Assembly: GCA_002422315.1 (NCBI GenBank)
Contig: DIUJ01000049.1
Span: forward strand, 83,799-147,798
From: Bacteroidetes bacterium UBA6161
GTDB lineage: Bacteria; Bacteroidota; Bacteroidia; NS11-12g; UBA955
Reading direction: 5' to 3'
DNA length: 64,000 bases
The position numbers and the translations under genes were made by a program. Under the pieces are notes generated by a model, which had not been told where the DNA came from, made no database searches, and saw only the letters and a list, made by a program, of their open reading frames with translations. Numbering within the stretch: the stretch's first letter is position 1; each line of letters starts with the position of its first letter. Positions 5,602 through 45,576 of this stretch are shown here, piece by piece.

Positions 5602-6476
5602 GATTGGCTATGTTCTAAAAAAATAAGTATAATAAAAAAAACATTAACAGAAATAGCTGCAATATTGTTCATTCTCATAGTGTTTTCAAAGTTGGCTTCT
5701 TCTGGTTTGCTAAAAACACTCCGCATCCAAAGGTTAAAAAAACCAAAAACAGGAGCTGTGCAGAGGGCAAAAAGCAAAAGGTAAGACCATTTTTGTTGTA
5801 AAATCCCAAAATAGTAAAATGCCAATGCACCCAAGGCAGCAAACAAAATACTCGAAAAAACAAAAGTGCCTCTTATACCAAGAAGCATGCTCAGGGTTTT
5901 TACTCCGTCTTTTTTGTCTTGCTCGTGTTGGTACACTTGCGTAAGAGGATAGCCTGCACCTACCAAAACAAAGGCCATACAAAGGGAAACCATAAATTCC
6001 ATATCATACAGTATAGTTCTACCTGTAGAGATACTTACCAGCAAAAATATAACTACCCCTTGAAAAATGGAAACATGTAAAAAACCCAAAACCGGAAATT
6101 TTTTTATTCTGATTTTGCGATAGCTATATGCCCTGGAAGCCAAAACATACAAAAGTGCCAACGCACTTGCCACGGGGTTGGATACCCAAAAATAAACAAG
6201 CAAGATACCTACACTATCTAAAATAAGGCTAAGTACAAACATAGATTTTGGAACTTTTGGAGGCGATTTAATGCCACCTATACTCCCGGTGTCTTTGTCC
6301 ATGTAGCTATTGTAGCCATTGCTAGCGGGGTAAAGAAAAAAGTGTAATGCTACAAAACAAGCCAAAGTGCTGTTCCAGTCTAGGCTATCTGCTTGGCTCA
6401 AAGCAAATAAAAAAACTGGCATAAGATATACACCGAAGGGAATGCGCAAATGCAATAAAAGGGGAGGGTAACTCAT
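5598..6476 (-). CDS. UbiA-family aromatic prenyltransferase (integral membrane)
   Basis: About 8 hydrophobic helices. Asp-rich motif NGYNSYMDKD. 4-nt overlap with the PKS gene. Confidence 0.7.
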   Translation of the reverse strand: MSYPPLLLHLRIPFGVYLMPVFLFALSQADSLDWNSTLACFVALHFFLYPASNGYNSYMDKDTGSIGGIKSPPKVPKSMFVLSLILDSVGILLVYFWVSNPVASALALLYVLASRAYSYRKIRIKKFPVLGFLHVSIFQGVVIFLLVSISTGRTILYDMEFMVSLCMAFVLVGAGYPLTQVYQHEQDKKDGVKTLSMLLGIRGTFVFSSILFAALGALAFYYFGILQQKWSYLLLFALCTAPVFGFFNLWMRSVFSKPEEANFENTMRMNNIAAISVNVFFIILIFLEHSQS

Positions 6477-6663
6477 AAAGTTTTATTACTTCAAATAAAG
6501 GGTAAATTTTGTTTACCTGTTAGGTCTTTGCAAAAAAAGCTAAGTAACTTATTTTGAGAAGTCAATAAGATTTTGTATAGTAAATAAAAACTTGTAATAA
6601 ATGAAAAATATATGCAATATTGCAGGTATAGAGACGAATTAGGCTATACCATATCAAATAATA

Positions 6664-7092
6664 ATGAAAAAAATACTTTACTTTGGAATTGTTGGATTTT
6701 TAATCTCTTGTTCTACAACAAAACAAGCTGTAAAAACTGGTTTAAAAGATAATCAGACTTTTAAATTAACAGAAATATCAACTGACCCTACATATGGATT
6801 GACATATAAAAATCCTATCCAAGTTGGTGGTGTAGAGAAAGAAGAAGGTCCATTAAACGAAAGAAGATTTCTAAACGCTCTTGCTGGACCGAATGGAGAA
6901 AAAGTTTCTTACTTTCGAGCTGGAAGTTGTTGTCCTACCAAGAGTAACAATGATCCATTAGGATTTGGTAGTGTTATGTTAGATAATTATCGTGTAACAT
7001 GGGAAGGTTCAAAAGATACGGTTTCAATATATATAAATATGTATGATTATGGAACTTTAAAAGCTCCTGTTGGATTTACAATTAAAAAATAA
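6664..7092 (+). CDS. Hypothetical lipoprotein
   Basis: Lipobox GFLISC after a hydrophobic signal segment. No recognised catalytic motif. Confidence 0.5.
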   Translation: MKKILYFGIVGFLISCSTTKQAVKTGLKDNQTFKLTEISTDPTYGLTYKNPIQVGGVEKEEGPLNERRFLNALAGPNGEKVSYFRAGSCCPTKSNNDPLGFGSVMLDNYRVTWEGSKDTVSIYINMYDYGTLKAPVGFTIKK

Positions 7093-7494: not shown

Positions 7495-8535
7495 ATGGAC
7501 AACGAAGTATATAATTTTAAACTGAAAATTGATTGGAAACTGATTAACTTAATCAGTGAAATAGATCGTTTTGATGCAAATTGGACCGCTATTGAACGCA
7601 AAGAAGGACAAAGCCTCAAAGAGTTGAAGAGCATTGCTACCGTTCGAAGCGTAGGGGCTTCAAACCGTATTGAAGGCAACAGAATGAGCGATGAAGAAGT
7701 TGATGTGTTGCTTCAAAAAATTGATGTTACTAACCTTACTGACAGAGATTCGCAGGAAGTAGTCGGTTATTTTGAAGTACTGGACTTGATATCGGAATCT
7801 TATGAAAACATTAGCGTTACCGAAAACCATCTCAAAAGCTTACATAATAGTTTGATGAAATACAGTGCCATAGACGAATGGCATAAAGGCAATTATAAGC
7901 TGCATAGTAATGCGGTTGAAGCCTCATTTCCTGACGGCACACGTCAAATCATTTTTCAAACCACCGAAGCGGGATTTGCCACTGAAGATGCCATAAGGGC
8001 TTTGCTAAATTGGTATAATTCCGAAACGGAAGTACATACGTTAATAAAAGTAGCGTCTTTCGTCTATGAATTTTTGAGCGTTCACCCATTTCAAGACGGA
8101 AACGGTAGGTTAAGCCGTTTGATTTCAACGCTTTTGTTACTAAAAAATGGATATAAATGGATACAATACGTGAGTTTTGAACATGAAATAGAAAACCAAA
8201 AAAACGAATATTATAAGGTGCTTAGAAGTTGTCAAGCACAACGCCCAAACGAAGATGTAACTGTTTGGATACAGTTCTTTTTGAGTTGCTTGTCCAATAT
8301 TCAATCGCAACTGCTGCTGAAATTGCAAAAAAGTGGAATGGAAACACAGCTTTCACCCAAAGAAAAATCAATTTATTCAATTATACAAAACCGTCCGAAC
8401 ATCCAGTCGGGAGAAATTGCCGAAAAGTTGGCGATACCTGCACCAACCGTAAAACGCATTTTGTCAGAGTTGCTTAACAAAGGATTAATTGAAAAACAAG
8501 GAAGTGGACGCAATGTGAGTTACACAATAAAATAA
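7495..8535 (+). CDS. Fic-family protein (AMPylase-type) with N-terminal inhibitory motif and C-terminal winged-helix DNA-binding domain
   Basis: Fic core HPFQDGNGRLSR at 8083-8118. Inhibitory-helix-like motif SNRIEG ((S/T)xxxE(G/N)) at 7660-7677. C-terminal SGEIAEKLAIPAPTVKRILSELLNKGLIEKQGSGRNVSY is wHTH-like. Confidence 0.9.
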   Translation: MDNEVYNFKLKIDWKLINLISEIDRFDANWTAIERKEGQSLKELKSIATVRSVGASNRIEGNRMSDEEVDVLLQKIDVTNLTDRDSQEVVGYFEVLDLISESYENISVTENHLKSLHNSLMKYSAIDEWHKGNYKLHSNAVEASFPDGTRQIIFQTTEAGFATEDAIRALLNWYNSETEVHTLIKVASFVYEFLSVHPFQDGNGRLSRLISTLLLLKNGYKWIQYVSFEHEIENQKNEYYKVLRSCQAQRPNEDVTVWIQFFLSCLSNIQSQLLLKLQKSGMETQLSPKEKSIYSIIQNRPNIQSGEIAEKLAIPAPTVKRILSELLNKGLIEKQGSGRNVSYTIK

Positions 8536-8575
8536 CATTAAAAATTAATAAAACCAATAACTCAACAGATATTAA

Positions 8576-8800
8576 AATTGCCCAGCAACTAACTAAGCCA
8601 GAGTTGATGCTCCAAAGGCAGATAAGTGCTCAACACTTTAAAAACCTTCAAATTTGAATTTTTTGAGTAAAAAACAACTTCAATAGAGGCTTATTAAGAG
8701 AGCCATTCTTTTCATCTGGTAATTTTTACTTGTAAAAAGTCGCTTAAAAGAAATATAATGAATAGTTTTTTCTATTTTTGAAGACATAACGGAGGTTTTT
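8576..8800 (+). repeat. Intergenic repeat family, copy B
   Basis: ctccaaaggcagataagtgctcaacactttaaaaaccttcaaatttgaatt...aaaaaacaacttcaatagaggc is ~85% identical by eye to copy C. The distal block aatagttttttctatttttgaagac matches copy A, including a tatttttg box. Confidence 0.8.
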
Positions 8801-43563: not shown

Positions 43564-43910
43564 GGGGTATGTAAGGGTGGGGGGTTACAGGAAAAAATAC
43601 TTATACTTCAAAAATAATAAAAACAAGGAATAGTCAAAAGGTTATCAGAAAGTTTTCTTGCTTAAGTTTAATTCTGATTTTTTATCCTTCATTAAGTCAT
43701 TAAAAATATAAAGTGACGTTTGTTTAAGTTGTTAATTATTTATCAGATATAAGTATTGTTGTTTTTAAAAATATATTTATTTGGTAATGAATATGTTGAT
43801 TATTATTTGTAATTAAAAAAACACTTATTGTGTGTATTAGGTTGATTATGATCTAATTATGTTTGTTTTATTCAGATATTGATCTCATTTTTGCAATAAA
43901 TTGAGCGTAC

Positions 43911-44390
43911 ATGAATGTAAATTTTGAAAGAGCAAAAAACACAACTGTGGAATGGTTAACACCTCCTGAACTAGTAAAAAGTTTAGGAGATTTTGATTTA
44001 GATCCATGTACTCCAATAAATCCGCCTTTTATTCATGCAAAAGTCAACTACAATAAAAATGATAACGGATTAAACAAAGATTGGTTTGGTAGAGTATTTT
44101 TGAATCCACCTTATGGAAAAGGAATGGAAATTTGGCTTGAAAAACTCAAAAAGCATGGTAATGGTATAGCTTTAATATTTGCAAGAACGGAAACAAAATG
44201 TTTTTTTGCACATATTTGGGATGATGCAGATGCAGTTCTATTTGTAAAAGGTAGAATAAAATTTTATAATTTAAAAGGAGAGCAGGCTGGAAGTCCTGGT
44301 GCCCCAAGTATTTTTATTGCTTACGGTATTAATAACGCTAAATCTCTTGAAGAATCAAAAATAGAAGGGAAATTTATTTGGTTAAAATAA
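43911..44390 (+). CDS. Small phage-type DNA N6-adenine methyltransferase (PF05869 Dam-like family)
   Basis: EWLTPPELVKSLG.FDLDPCT, then the catalytic NPPYG (VFLNPPYGKG) and a late GRIKF. 159 aa. Confidence 0.7.
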   Translation: MNVNFERAKNTTVEWLTPPELVKSLGDFDLDPCTPINPPFIHAKVNYNKNDNGLNKDWFGRVFLNPPYGKGMEIWLEKLKKHGNGIALIFARTETKCFFAHIWDDADAVLFVKGRIKFYNLKGEQAGSPGAPSIFIAYGINNAKSLEESKIEGKFIWLK

Positions 44391-44585
44391 TTGAATTACT
44401 TCAAACTCTGCAACATTAAATTGAGCATCAATTATCCAATTATTTTCTTTTAATAACTTTACAATAGCATCATTTTCATCTATTGCATTATCAACAATAC
44501 CAAGTACTTGTAAATTATTCACTTCTACTTCGGTATTAGGAGCAATTGTTGTTCCTTCCGGAGTTAATACTATATATTTTTTCAT
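44382..44585 (-). CDS. Small acidic protein translationally coupled to the DpnI-like gene (positional analogue of dpnD)
   Basis: ATG 44585 is 1 nt after the upstream TAA (44587-44589). 67 aa. Its 3' end overlaps the convergent methyltransferase gene by 9 nt. Confidence 0.45.
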   Translation of the reverse strand: MKKYIVLTPEGTTIAPNTEVEVNNLQVLGIVDNAIDENDAIVKLLKENNWIIDAQFNVAEFEVIQLF

Positions 44586-44586
44586 G

Positions 44587-45351
44587 TTATGTTTTCTTAT
44601 AATTTCCACGACCAACAAATTCTATGATTCCTTTGTCTCTCAAAACTTGAAGTTGTTGTCTAATTTTGTCTTTAATGAAATTGTTATTGGGATACTTCAA
44701 TTTTAATTTATTCTCAAATTGGTAAACCTCATCTAAAGTGAAATATTGTTTTTTAATTGAATCAACGCAAAGCATTACATCTAAAATCCAACCTCTTGAA
44801 TTGCTTGATTTTTCTCTTAAAAATAATGTTTGGTTGAATGAATTTTCAACAGCTTTTTTATCTATAATCTTAGCGTCTTTCACAAGAAACACTTTGCCTG
44901 CTTCTGCAACATTTGAAATATCAATATTACACCCTATCCACCCTGCACGTTTTGCAGTTGAAGAAAGTGGCTTTCGTTTCACTATGATATCAGGCGTAAA
45001 GAACTGTTTTGGAATAATTAAGAAATTTTCAACTGTCCAATTCTTAGAATATGTTAGAAAGAAAAAGTTTGGGTTCTGATTTGAGCTTATTCGTTCAATC
45101 ATTGTAGAATAAGCACCGTCAGTAATTGTATTTGTGAGTTGCCCTCCCTTACTTTTTAGTTCAAATTCTTCTGAGCACTTATTGCAAAAAAAATCAGCTA
45201 CTGGTCTATTGTTTTCAAATTCATTTAATGGAACCTCTCCACAACAAGGACAATACGAATTGTTAAGAACCCAATTTTCAGTTAAAACTCTTGCAATTTG
45301 AGAGTTACTTTTGTAACCATCCACAAGTTTAGTATTGAAACACAAATTCAT
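44587..45351 (-). CDS. DpnI-like (Dam-replacing family) N6-methyladenine-dependent type IIM restriction endonuclease
   Basis: 254 aa. CPCCG...FFCNKCSEEFELKSK (Cys4 plus ExK nuclease core), RKPLSSTAKRAGWIGCNI, and a C-terminal winged-helix tail KIRQQLQVLRDKGIIEFVGRGNYKK. This is colinear with my recollection of R.DpnI. Confidence 0.8.
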   Translation of the reverse strand: MNLCFNTKLVDGYKSNSQIARVLTENWVLNNSYCPCCGEVPLNEFENNRPVADFFCNKCSEEFELKSKGGQLTNTITDGAYSTMIERISSNQNPNFFFLTYSKNWTVENFLIIPKQFFTPDIIVKRKPLSSTAKRAGWIGCNIDISNVAEAGKVFLVKDAKIIDKKAVENSFNQTLFLREKSSNSRGWILDVMLCVDSIKKQYFTLDEVYQFENKLKLKYPNNNFIKDKIRQQLQVLRDKGIIEFVGRGNYKKT

Positions 45352-45387
45352 TTTTTTTATTGGTTATTTATTTGGCATAGCATTTCT

Positions 45388-45483
45388 TTAAAAACAGTGA
45401 TAGTGAAATGAAATATTACAATGGTATTTATGTCCTTTCTCACCTGCCCATTTCAAAAACGGTTTTGCTATTTTTTCTGCCAT
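45388..45483 (-). pseudogene. 31-codon fossil of the 5' end of a dam-type (D12 class) adenine methyltransferase gene
   Basis: Translates MAEKIAKPFLKWAGEKGHKYHCNISFHYHCF*. KPFLKWAG(G>E)K is the conserved N-terminal motif of the Dam/DpnM family. The ORF stops after 31 codons, 36 nt upstream of the DpnI-like start. Confidence 0.55.
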
Positions 45484-45511
45484 CCTACTTTTGTTTATTT
45501 TTTAGAGTAAG

Positions 45512-45519
45512 CAAATGTA
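45512..45519 (-). promoter_or_regulatory. -7 promoter box (TAnnTTTG, minus strand) upstream of the dam fossil and DpnI-like operon
   Basis: Minus-strand tacatttg, ~29 nt upstream of the fossil ATG. Confidence 0.45.
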
Positions 45520-45576
45520 TGTTTAAAGTTTACAAATTTGAGTTCCTTTGTTTTCTAAATTATTAACAACCTATTA

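Follow-up and report, generated by a model that had tools for sequence, protein, structure and literature searches.

A small DpnI cassette in a Bacteroidota genome, the probable remnant of its own D12 methylase gene, and a linked adenine methylase gene

Layout and setting of the cassette

The DNA analysed here (the window) is a stretch of 64,000 nucleotides of contig DIUJ01000049.1, from a genome of the Bacteroidota, and all coordinates refer to this stretch. A DpnI cassette of about 1.75 kb, with genes on both strands, lies at positions 43768..45540, its limits being those of DNA similarity to other cassettes. On the minus strand there are, in the direction of reading, a TAnnTTTG box, a 31-codon open reading frame (ORF), a gene for a protein of 254 amino acids and a gene for a protein of 67 amino acids. 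These four items had been listed in an initial annotation of the sequence, and all are present where it placed them; the span which that annotation gave to the unit (44382-45519) contains them, but omits a convergent methylase gene of the PF05869 family at 43911-44390.

The G+C content is 0.23-0.31 in the cassette versus about 0.35 nearby. In a blastn comparison with 85 loci, only cassette DNA of the window (43768-45354 and 45436-45519) resembled other loci, and the flanks were unmatched. No flanking direct repeats were found at the cassette ends, there is no integrase or transposase gene at the cassette locus, and the window contains no match to an Rfam family. Searches for exact copies of the two flanking proteins led only to the same strain, and a metagenome scan with the neighbouring DUF2200 protein gave best homologues that were 71-78% identical, without shared flanks or synteny. 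A search of viral contigs for relatives of DpnI found none, and a search of a plasmid collection with DpnI returned only Neisseria chromosomes.

The nuclease and the small protein that follows it

The 254-amino-acid protein (44587..45351, minus strand) is an orthologue of R.DpnI, the product of dpnC, and belongs with it to the type IIM, Dam-replacing family. It matches both PF06044 (E 2.5e-81; 272.1 bits, cut-off 26.7) and PF17726 (E 3.4e-35; 120.5 bits, cut-off 23) over the whole of each profile, the PADLOC model mREase_II (E 1.4e-120), and the crystallised R.DpnI (PDB 4ESJ; E 1e-105), with which residues 1-253 align without a gap. The catalytic residues E25, D53, E64 and K66 (4ESJ numbering) and the zinc cysteines C34/C37 and C56/C59, which form two CxxC pairs, are all kept; the roles of these residues were defined and validated in PMC3424567. 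The protein further contains the motif EFELKSK and a winged-helix tail, in which the recognition helix (IKDKIRQQLQVLRDKGIIEF) closely resembles that of R.DpnI (IKEKIRQQLQILRDKEIIEF). The initial annotation had likened this protein to R.DpnI, and both the PF06044 search and the gapless alignment bear it out. Judged by homology, the protein is a G(m6A)TC-dependent nuclease of the PD-(D/E)XK type with a C-terminal winged-helix domain that reads methylated GATC. It would be expected to cut only GATC that carries N6-methyladenine on both strands, and so to restrict phage or plasmid DNA that has been methylated by a Dam-type enzyme.

The gene that starts 1 nt after the DpnI stop codon (44382..44585, minus strand) encodes an acidic protein of 67 amino acids, assigned to the AF_1447 family by a precomputed PF27350 match. 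Among 24 orthologues 19 positions are invariant, and pN/pS is 0.29. The AlphaFold model has a pLDDT of 93; it matched no fold in the PDB (best Foldseek E 2.2), nor did the sequence match any entry there, and no literature on the function of AF_1447 was found. The initial annotation had drawn a parallel with the dpnD gene of pneumococcus, which did not hold: as DpnD-PcfM (PF14207) the protein gives no Pfam match and no phmmer cross-match, and an hhalign comparison of 24 AF_1447-like with 39 DpnD sequences returned a probability of 1.4%.

A convergent adenine methylase gene and its GATC doublet

Facing the AF_1447 gene, and overlapping it by 9 nt at the 3′ ends, is an intact gene on the plus strand (43911..44390) for an N6-adenine DNA methylase of the phage Dam type (PF05869; 43.4 bits, cut-off 28.1), which also matches PADLOC oMTase and phrog_111. 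The protein has 159 amino acids, a length that is identical in 120 homologues. It contains EWLTPP, FDLDPC, NPPYG and ARTET and has every residue that is invariant in a set of 23 sequences, with a pN/pS of 0.28; phages of Bacteroides and Phocaeicola have methylases that are about 50% identical to it. Against TIGR01712, the equivalog model for characterised phage N6-adenine methylases, it scores 34.8 bits, below the cut-off of 97, so it is a divergent member, to which the specificity of the characterised enzymes is not transferable and whose target may differ from GATC. With an intact adenine methylase gene in the cassette, the earlier prediction that the host would have no G6mATC is not safe; the main text and supplements of PMC4752239 contain no methylome data for a carrier species.

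The genes for AF_1447 and the PF05869 methylase occur together in all 26 loci of type B. They were also together in each of seven contexts found by way of the methylase: three with DpnI, three with a nuclease that combines PLDc_2 and DpnI_C domains, and one in which the nuclease has been lost. In other words, the methylase gene is always accompanied by AF_1447 and almost always by a gene for a winged-helix nuclease, and the PLD nuclease that partners it carries the same methyl-GATC-reading domain as DpnI. From this pattern AF_1447 appears to be an obligate partner of the PF05869 methylase, and both proteins would act together with the nuclease instead of just being its neighbours.

Upstream of the methylase gene, two GATC sites (43850 and 43881, 31 nt apart; 43850..43884, plus strand) frame its promoter elements, and their conservation marks this as a presumed methylation-sensitive control region. 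Of the 26 type B loci, 21 keep the doublet, as does every PF05869-anchored locus that was examined, the genomes being otherwise poor in GATC; in one locus (L046) its two sites are the only GATC sites in 12.7 kb. We infer that the doublet controls the PF05869 gene. Probably, the methylase is specific for GATC, to which the doublet points indirectly, and the two promoter sites probably keep its expression very low or off.

GATC is scarce in the cassette hosts as a group. The observed-to-expected ratio (O/E) of GATC is 0.29 in cassette hosts versus 0.87 in 35 control loci, which were not phylogenetically matched (p = 1.4e-10), and nine other 4-nt palindromes showed no difference between the two groups. 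The window itself has 34 GATC sites where 199 are expected. Not every carrier is so depleted: L183 has 19 sites for 21 expected, and in L072 the O/E is 0.57.

A methylase scar upstream of the nuclease gene

The 31-codon ORF MAEKIAKPFLKWAGEKGHKYHCNISFHYHCF (45388..45483, minus strand) ends 36 nt before the DpnI ATG. Its first 16 codons are those of a methylase and its last 15 are unrelated. The initial annotation had seen in this ORF and the box ahead of it the fossil 5′ end and promoter of a Dam/DpnM-type methylase gene, and this is supported at the level of the DNA. A block of 84 nt (45436..45519, minus strand), comprising a promoter box, a leader, an ATG and the 16 codons (MAEKIAKPFLKWAGEK), is by blastn 79-95% identical to the 5′ regions of D12 (DpnM-like) methylase genes from more than 20 loci. 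By tblastn, D12 residues 3-15 are matched at 92%, and the translation reads AKPFLKWAGEK, an instance of the motif xPFLKWAGGK. The homology stops after codon 16, with the junction directly after GGCAGGT.

The box itself (TACATTTG, 45512..45519, minus strand) is a -7 promoter box of the Bacteroidota type, which would have belonged to the former D12 gene and is presumed to be the promoter of the DpnI operon. The window contains 120 copies of TAnnTTTG, about as many as chance predicts (112 +/- 12); the box is meaningful only because it lies inside a block that is homologous to D12 promoters. This block is about 80% identical to the D12 upstream regions of five loci in particular (L047, L048, L059, L063 and L066), which have TAAATTTG at the same place, and in many loci TAAATTTG is found about 35 nt upstream of the D12 ATG.

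It could be objected that KPFLKWAG and the box ahead of it arose by chance in an AT-rich spacer: the ORF is short, searches of Pfam and NCBIfam with it gave no match, and the box is as frequent as chance would have it. Set against this are the 84 nt of similarity to D12 5′ ends, and a position and orientation relative to DpnI that recur in more than 40 other loci. Chance was already refuted as the origin of the motif by the DNA-level similarity search of the cassette loci, and the likelihood that remains to it is vanishingly small.

What follows the 84-nt block is an 81-nt junction filler (45355..45435, minus strand), which has no counterpart in other cassettes (no blastn match in the 85 loci) and stands where other cassettes would have the body of the methylase gene, deleted here, and a hairpin of the Flavo-1-like type; a Flavo-1-like element is absent throughout the window. 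The AdoMet-binding FxGxG, the catalytic DPPY and the DNA-contact hairpin are all absent from the 31-codon ORF, and without FxGxG and DPPY it cannot be a methylase. Its homology identifies it as what is left of the D12 methylase gene of the cassette. The retained D12 promoter plausibly still drives DpnI, and both DpnI and AF_1447 would then be transcribed from it.

The D12 methylase across related cassettes

In the closest homologues there is an intact D12 gene, for a protein of 319 amino acids, that overlaps the start of DpnI. Among 80 genome loci, D12 is intact in about 25, frameshifted in 3, internally deleted in about 7, reduced to a stub of <=60 codons in 13 and missing from about 31. The intact genes are directly upstream of DpnI, with the stop codon 0-2 nt before the DpnI ATG, and are found in unrelated genomic contexts, whereas each remnant has its own junction. 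This distribution indicates that D12 is the cassette's own upstream gene and has been deleted independently many times. Among the carriers are the isolates Marivirga tractuosa ac6, Flavobacterium cyanobacteriorum TH021, Pedobacter glucosidilyticus DSM 23534 and Runella aurantiaca YX9, of which the first has an intact D12 gene.

The D12 proteins of the cassettes have DpnM as their best match in the PDB (E 4e-53), and the Pfam D12 domain is complete in them (positions 1-253 of 253). Across the 24 cassette D12 proteins KPFLKWAGGK, FxGxG, DPPY and the hairpin FNGLYRVN..N..NVPMG are invariant, the counterpart of the hairpin in DpnM being FNGLYRVN..N.FNVP.G. All copies are without the last ~19 residues of DpnM beyond the aligned region and have instead a tail for which the Flavo-1-like element supplies the coding sequence, the reading frame varying. 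While the two genes are adjacent, dN/dS is about 0.07 for D12 and about 0.08 for DpnI, values that denote purifying selection. Four type B cassettes (L050, L061, L068 and L071) hold D12 and PF05869 together, and in some cassettes a gene of the XRE family abuts D12.

Three other interpretations of the D12 genes were considered and rejected. The full-length gene is not a decaying pseudogene, given its dN/dS and the invariance of all its motifs; the pairs of D12 and DpnI are not assembly chimeras, as they are present in isolate genomes (L034, L077); and selection of the remnant ORFs for translational coupling is not supported, the 10 of 21 that keep the native junction of stop and ATG being no significant excess over one third (p = 0.12). 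The 31-codon ORF in the window does not retain this junction with DpnI.

The initial annotation had proposed that this site once had a resident dam gene or a DpnII-type restriction-modification system, whose place was taken by its functional opposite, with the old start and promoter left behind. The stub and the promoter are real, and such exchanges have been documented in Neisseria (PMC4269198) and in pneumococcus (PMC3573125). Nevertheless, the same gene, intact or decayed, is found in the same place relative to DpnI in dozens of unrelated contexts; the four type B cassettes just mentioned still have both this gene and PF05869; and the stub in the window, promoter included, is homologous to the D12 genes of the cassettes. 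The D12 gene belongs to the cassette, and the flanks of the cassette in the window are unmatched. A search of the window for a further Dam or D12 homologue found none. Replacement of a resident gene is therefore very unlikely, and the scar appears to record the loss of the cassette's own methylase, not the displacement of a host dam.

The full ancestral cassette would have consisted of a promoter, a D12 (DpnM-like, GATC-type) methylase gene, a Flavo-1-like hairpin, the gene for R.DpnI and that for a small protein. In the variant found in the window the small protein would be AF_1447, followed by the convergent PF05869 adenine methylase gene, and a deletion would have removed everything from D12 codon 17 up to the DpnI leader, the hairpin included. 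Very probably, then, positions 43768-45540 represent a type of small DpnI cassette that has spread horizontally and is frequent among Bacteroidota, in a copy that has lost its own D12 methylase by deletion, without any host dam being displaced, and in which the PF05869 methylase and AF_1447 would be partners of the nuclease.

How nuclease and methylase may coexist

Perhaps the cassette supplies its own mark, its methylase (PF05869 in the window, D12 in other loci) putting down the G(m6A)TC that the linked nuclease then recognises and cuts. Marking would be independent of the invader, and the host would be spared by having few GATC sites and by a methylase that is throttled or triggered by infection, through the promoter GATC sites or an XRE repressor. 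Several of the observations above fit such a scheme: the methylase is strictly linked to nucleases that differ in their catalytic domains and share only the methyl-GATC-reading domain, adjacent D12 and DpnI genes are both under purifying selection, the DNA-contact hairpin of D12 has the same sequence as that of DpnM, the promoter doublet is conserved, carriers are depleted of GATC specifically, and an XRE gene adjoins D12 in some cassettes. Against it, one carrier (L183) has a normal density of GATC, the roughly 2000 GATC sites per genome would still make full methylation lethal, cassettes without a methylase are common, and the DpnI of pneumococcus works without one. We regard the scheme as possible, though less likely than not.

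The linked methylases may, with about the same modest likelihood, not methylate GATC in duplex host DNA at all, either having another target, or acting on single-stranded DNA only, or being weak, so that there is no conflict with DpnI. Intact pairs of methylase and DpnI have long been stable, in cultured isolates too, which is simplest if there is nothing to reconcile; the PF05869 protein falls below the equivalog cut-off of NCBIfam; the D12 copies have the Flavo-1-like-encoded tail in place of the last residues of DpnM; and L183 is not depleted of GATC. On the other side, the D12 domain is complete and its hairpin is as in DpnM, and three things are left unexplained: the conserved GATC doublet in the promoter, the specific depletion of GATC, and the fact that the methylase stays with the methyl-GATC-reading domain when the fold of the nuclease changes.

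It is a tentative suggestion, then, that the DpnI-family and PLD-winged-helix nucleases of Bacteroidota are parts of self-contained write-and-cut modules, each with a dedicated Dam-type methylase (D12 in the operon, or PF05869 with AF_1447). If this were true, the host would escape mainly because its genome has been purged of GATC, the modules would represent a strategy of restriction or abortive infection in which the density of sites and timing, and not a protective modification, separate self from non-self, and the many deletions of the methylase, including the one in the window, would be escapes from an autoimmune cost.

Implications

DpnI, the textbook example of a methyl-dependent restriction enzyme, is assumed to keep Dam-type methylation out of its host. 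In Bacteroidota, by contrast, it usually comes with Dam-type methylase genes, which in about one third of the loci are intact and under purifying selection and in others have repeatedly been deleted. This packaging, and a pair of methylase and small protein that tracks the methyl-GATC-reading domain despite the change in nuclease fold, point to a functional coupling for which models of type IIM and type IV restriction at present have no explanation. They also offer a concrete reason for the marked avoidance of GATC in carrier genomes, and they call for caution, as a DpnI gene alone is insufficient to predict the methylation state of a host. In annotations, the 31-codon ORF is best described as the pseudogene remnant of a methylase, and the genes for the proteins of 159 and 67 amino acids as parts of the defence cassette.

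Comparison with known systems

The nuclease of the DpnI cassette of Streptococcus pneumoniae (dpnC and dpnD) is orthologous to that in the window, with a gapless alignment over residues 1-253 and identical catalytic, zinc and winged-helix residues, and there too a small acidic ORF directly follows the nuclease gene. Most Bacteroidota cassettes (type A) have, as in pneumococcus, a true DpnD-PcfM gene after DpnI; the window differs in having AF_1447 instead of DpnD, and a convergent PF05869 methylase gene. The ancestral Bacteroidota form would differ from the pneumococcal DpnI cassette in its DpnM-like methylase gene upstream in the DpnI operon. We know of no description of AF_1447, of a convergent PF05869 methylase or of an upstream DpnM-like gene for the pneumococcal DpnI cassette.

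At the drg/drp locus of Neisseria (leuS/dam), a DpnI-family nuclease, 47% identical to the DpnI of the window, likewise stands where a Dam-type methylase gene is missing (PMC4269198). There, a housekeeping dam gene at a fixed site was replaced, whereas in the window a travelling methylase gene of the cassette would have been deleted and not swapped.

The m6A-dependent nucleases with a winged-helix fusion that are treated in PMC11037411 are of the same families (PD-(D/E)XK-wH and PLD-wH). The initial annotation knew of no switch of this kind in Bacteroidota, which has to be qualified, as that paper already reports a frameshifted 6mA methylase gene adjacent to a DpnI-like gene in CP064983.1 (our locus L039). 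The paper further raises the possibility of self-restriction for one PLD-wH neighbour, suggests tight control of expression, and describes methylases as rare neighbours, with none within three genes in 87% of cases. Intact D12-DpnI operons, the range of independent deletions, the unit of AF_1447 and PF05869, the promoter GATC doublet and the depletion of GATC in hosts are not described in the part of the paper available to us.

The DpnII cassette of pneumococcus (dpnM, dpnA, dpnB) provides, in DpnM, the best match of the Bacteroidota D12 proteins, with the same hairpin in the pairwise alignment. The downstream partner in Bacteroidota is, however, the methyl-dependent DpnI and not the methyl-sensitive DpnII, and a DpnII-type gene turned up in none of the cassette loci. 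In the Pgl system of Streptomyces, restriction acts on phage DNA after a methylase has marked it, and this methylase is toxic if unchecked. The likeness to Pgl is one of logic only: there is no homology to Pgl proteins, and the marking of invaders by the cassettes is conjecture. A similar layout is known from classical type II restriction-modification systems with a controller protein, in which the methylase and nuclease genes are convergent or an XRE gene lies ahead of the operon.

Gene content of the cassette

On the minus strand of the window, a TAnnTTTG box (TACATTTG, 45519–45512) is followed by a 31-codon open reading frame (ORF; 45483–45388, peptide MAEKIAKPFLKWAGEKGHKYHCNISFHYHCF) and, after a 36-nt gap, by a 254-aa ORF (45351–44587); a 67-aa ORF (44585–44382) begins 1 base past the stop codon of the latter. 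Re-reading of this strand showed that the initial annotation had placed all four features correctly. Its gene list stands for the box and the three ORFs, but it had overlooked both the family of the 67-aa protein (AF_1447, PF27350) and an intact 159-aa PF05869 adenine methylase gene (43911–44390), which is convergent with the 67-aa ORF and overlaps its 3′ end by 9 nt. What had been observed was confirmed; its interpretation was supported in part. Elsewhere in the window, at 30–779, 834–1583 and 1593–2342, lie three paralogues of 249 aa in tandem, all of which carry a T9SS sorting domain (Por_Secre_tail) at the C terminus; these domains mark the window as Bacteroidota DNA.

The 254-aa protein matches the PF06044 and PF17726 profiles end to end (E 2.5e-81 and 3.4e-35) and the PADLOC type II methyl-directed enzyme model (E 1.4e-120), and aligns without gaps to crystallised pneumococcal R.DpnI (4ESJ; E 1e-105). 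It has kept E25, D53, E64, K66 and two CxxC pairs, the importance of which in R.DpnI has been shown by mutagenesis and structure (PMC3424567). Judged from these alignments, it is a true R.DpnI orthologue, as had been proposed, and by homology it would restrict DNA in which GATC is methylated on both strands. Homologues at 75–87% identity number in the thousands, mostly in Bacteroidota; thus, a DpnI gene is ordinary in this phylum.

Cassette types

The related loci surveyed in other genomes fall into two types: type A, [D12]–DpnI–DpnD, and type B, [D12]–DpnI–AF_1447–(convergent PF05869), where D12 is a DpnM-like (PF02086) adenine methylase gene. The window cassette is of type B. Its 67-aa ORF encodes the AF_1447-family protein, for which no relation to the pneumococcal DpnD named in the initial annotation was detectable; comparison of its fold gave no functional lead. 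In an Ignavibacteria genome (L015), DpnI–DpnD pairs occur in tandem, at 6001–6934 and 7606–8699. The PF05869 protein has NPPY and every other family-invariant motif. It (43911–44387) is ~50% identical over the full 159 aa to the methylases of Bacteroides phage B40-8 and many Phocaeicola phages, and so is of the phage type.

A search anchored on the PF05869 methylase gave seven independent contexts, in all of which AF_1447 adjoins it. Three have DpnI, three have a fusion of a PLDc_2 nuclease with the same winged helix (DpnI_C), and one has lost the nuclease. Because the catalytic domain has been exchanged within an otherwise constant gene set, these contexts argue for a functional three-gene unit, in which the methylase and AF_1447 would be partners of the nuclease. 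Where the fusion stands in for DpnI (L173, 4172–4978; L176–L178, 4172–4969; L179–L181, 3672–4466), the cassette is otherwise identical, promoter GATC doublet included. In L174 and L175 the cassette directly adjoins Cas9 or Cas12a, a defence-island setting; the Cas9-adjoining copy, in Cloacibacterium rupense, is the one that has lost the nuclease gene and retained methylase and AF_1447.

GATC sites

In the window, the PF05869 promoter is framed by two GATC sites 31 nt apart (43850 and 43881). All methylase-anchored loci share this arrangement, as do 21 of the 26 loci of type B; in one locus (L046) the pair comprises the sole GATC sites in 12.7 kb. A third GATC lies inside the PF05869 gene (44001–44004), where the codons for Asp-Pro in the invariant FDLDPC motif produce it. 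Although GATC is avoided elsewhere, roughly half of the type B loci have this site at the same place.

The observed/expected ratio of GATC is 0.29 in the flanks of 65 DpnI-cassette loci versus 0.87 in 35 control Bacteroidota loci, which were not phylogenetically matched (Mann–Whitney p = 1.4e-10); the two sets are alike for nine other 4-nt palindromes. The window has 34 GATC sites; its composition predicts 199 and a Markov model 104. As an exception, L183 has the full three-gene unit yet normal GATC density; L072 is also among the exceptions. Both solitary DpnI loci (L065, L076) lack the depletion.

The D12 gene and its remnant

The nearest homologues (L005–L008, 85% identity) have an intact 319-aa D12 gene, beginning MSKTAKPFLKWAGGK and sharing 4 nt with the DpnI start, and a DpnD-PcfM gene after DpnI. 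Among 80 loci from species-representative genomes, D12 upstream of DpnI is intact in about 25 (Marivirga tractuosa ac6 and Flavobacterium cyanobacteriorum TH021 are isolates among these), frameshifted in 3 (one being CP064983.1, already noted in PMC11037411) and internally deleted in about 7. In 13 loci only a 5′ stub of at most 60 codons is left, and in about 31 the gene is absent. No two remnants share a junction, so that the deletions are independent.

Window DNA is similar to other cassettes only at 43768–45354 and 45436–45519; neither the 81 nt between these blocks nor either cassette flank gave a match in this comparison. The second block is 79–95% identical in DNA to the promoter, leader and first codons of D12 genes, which upholds the proposed fossil methylase start. 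The genomic context of the cassette differs from host to host, and the search found no relatives syntenic with the window site. Since similarity stops at the cassette blocks, the methylase stub is best read as what a deletion left of a gene belonging to the cassette itself; the proposal that a host dam gene was replaced in place is not sustained. The TAnnTTTG box on its own occurs at chance frequency, and so has meaning only within the D12-homologous block. The suggested reuse of the promoter is supported: DpnI and AF_1447 would be transcribed from the retained D12 promoter. As the stop of the 31-codon ORF falls 36 nt before the DpnI ATG, the upstream ORF is probably uncoupled from DpnI in the window copy.

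In some cassettes (L014, 4753–5043; L017, 1236–1526; L025, 4754–5044; L082, 274–564), D12 is preceded by a 96-aa XRE/HTH_3 gene whose end coincides exactly with the D12 start codon. This gene, of which L009 and L013 show remnants, might control the methylase–DpnI operon.

A conserved hairpin of ~90 nt, matching Rfam Flavo-1 (RF01705; 54 bits) on the strand opposite the operon, lies between the D12 core and DpnI in 43 of 81 DpnI loci (e.g., L005, 5914–5987; L041, 3118–3194), including some without D12; its end is ~8 nt upstream of the DpnI ATG. The frame in which the D12 ORF crosses it varies, and the ORF often ends ..AA. Flanks totalling about 800 kb yielded just two more copies, and the window has none. 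Flavo-1 is without known function or fixed orientation (PMC9723704). In two pairs of loci (L047/L048 and L050/L061), there is little or no divergence between the DpnI genes (dS 0 and 0.07) but the adjacent D12 genes differ (dS 0.44 and 0.34), implying that recombination has taken place between D12 and DpnI, with the hairpin as a possible site.

Apparent coexistence with a Dam-type methylase

The cassette D12 proteins resemble DpnM most closely (E 4e-53). In 24 of 24 copies all catalytic motifs are invariant, as is the DNA-contact hairpin, which reads like the aligned stretch of DpnM. Intact D12 and neighbouring DpnI genes have dN/dS of ~0.07 and ~0.08, with synonymous sites saturated; both are under strong purifying selection. 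From this, the coexistence of a GATC writer with a methyl-GATC cutter would seem to be of long standing. The cassette methylase might be a throttled or triggered writer of the mark that the linked nuclease cuts, a tentative reading; that it never fully methylates host GATC is an equally speculative alternative, and something else behind the pairing is a further possibility. The literature searched offered no explanation for methylases paired with methyl-GATC-dependent nucleases. The main interest of the cassettes lies in this recurrent, unexplained pairing with Dam-type methylases, of which PMC11037411 notes single cases, suggesting tight control of expression.
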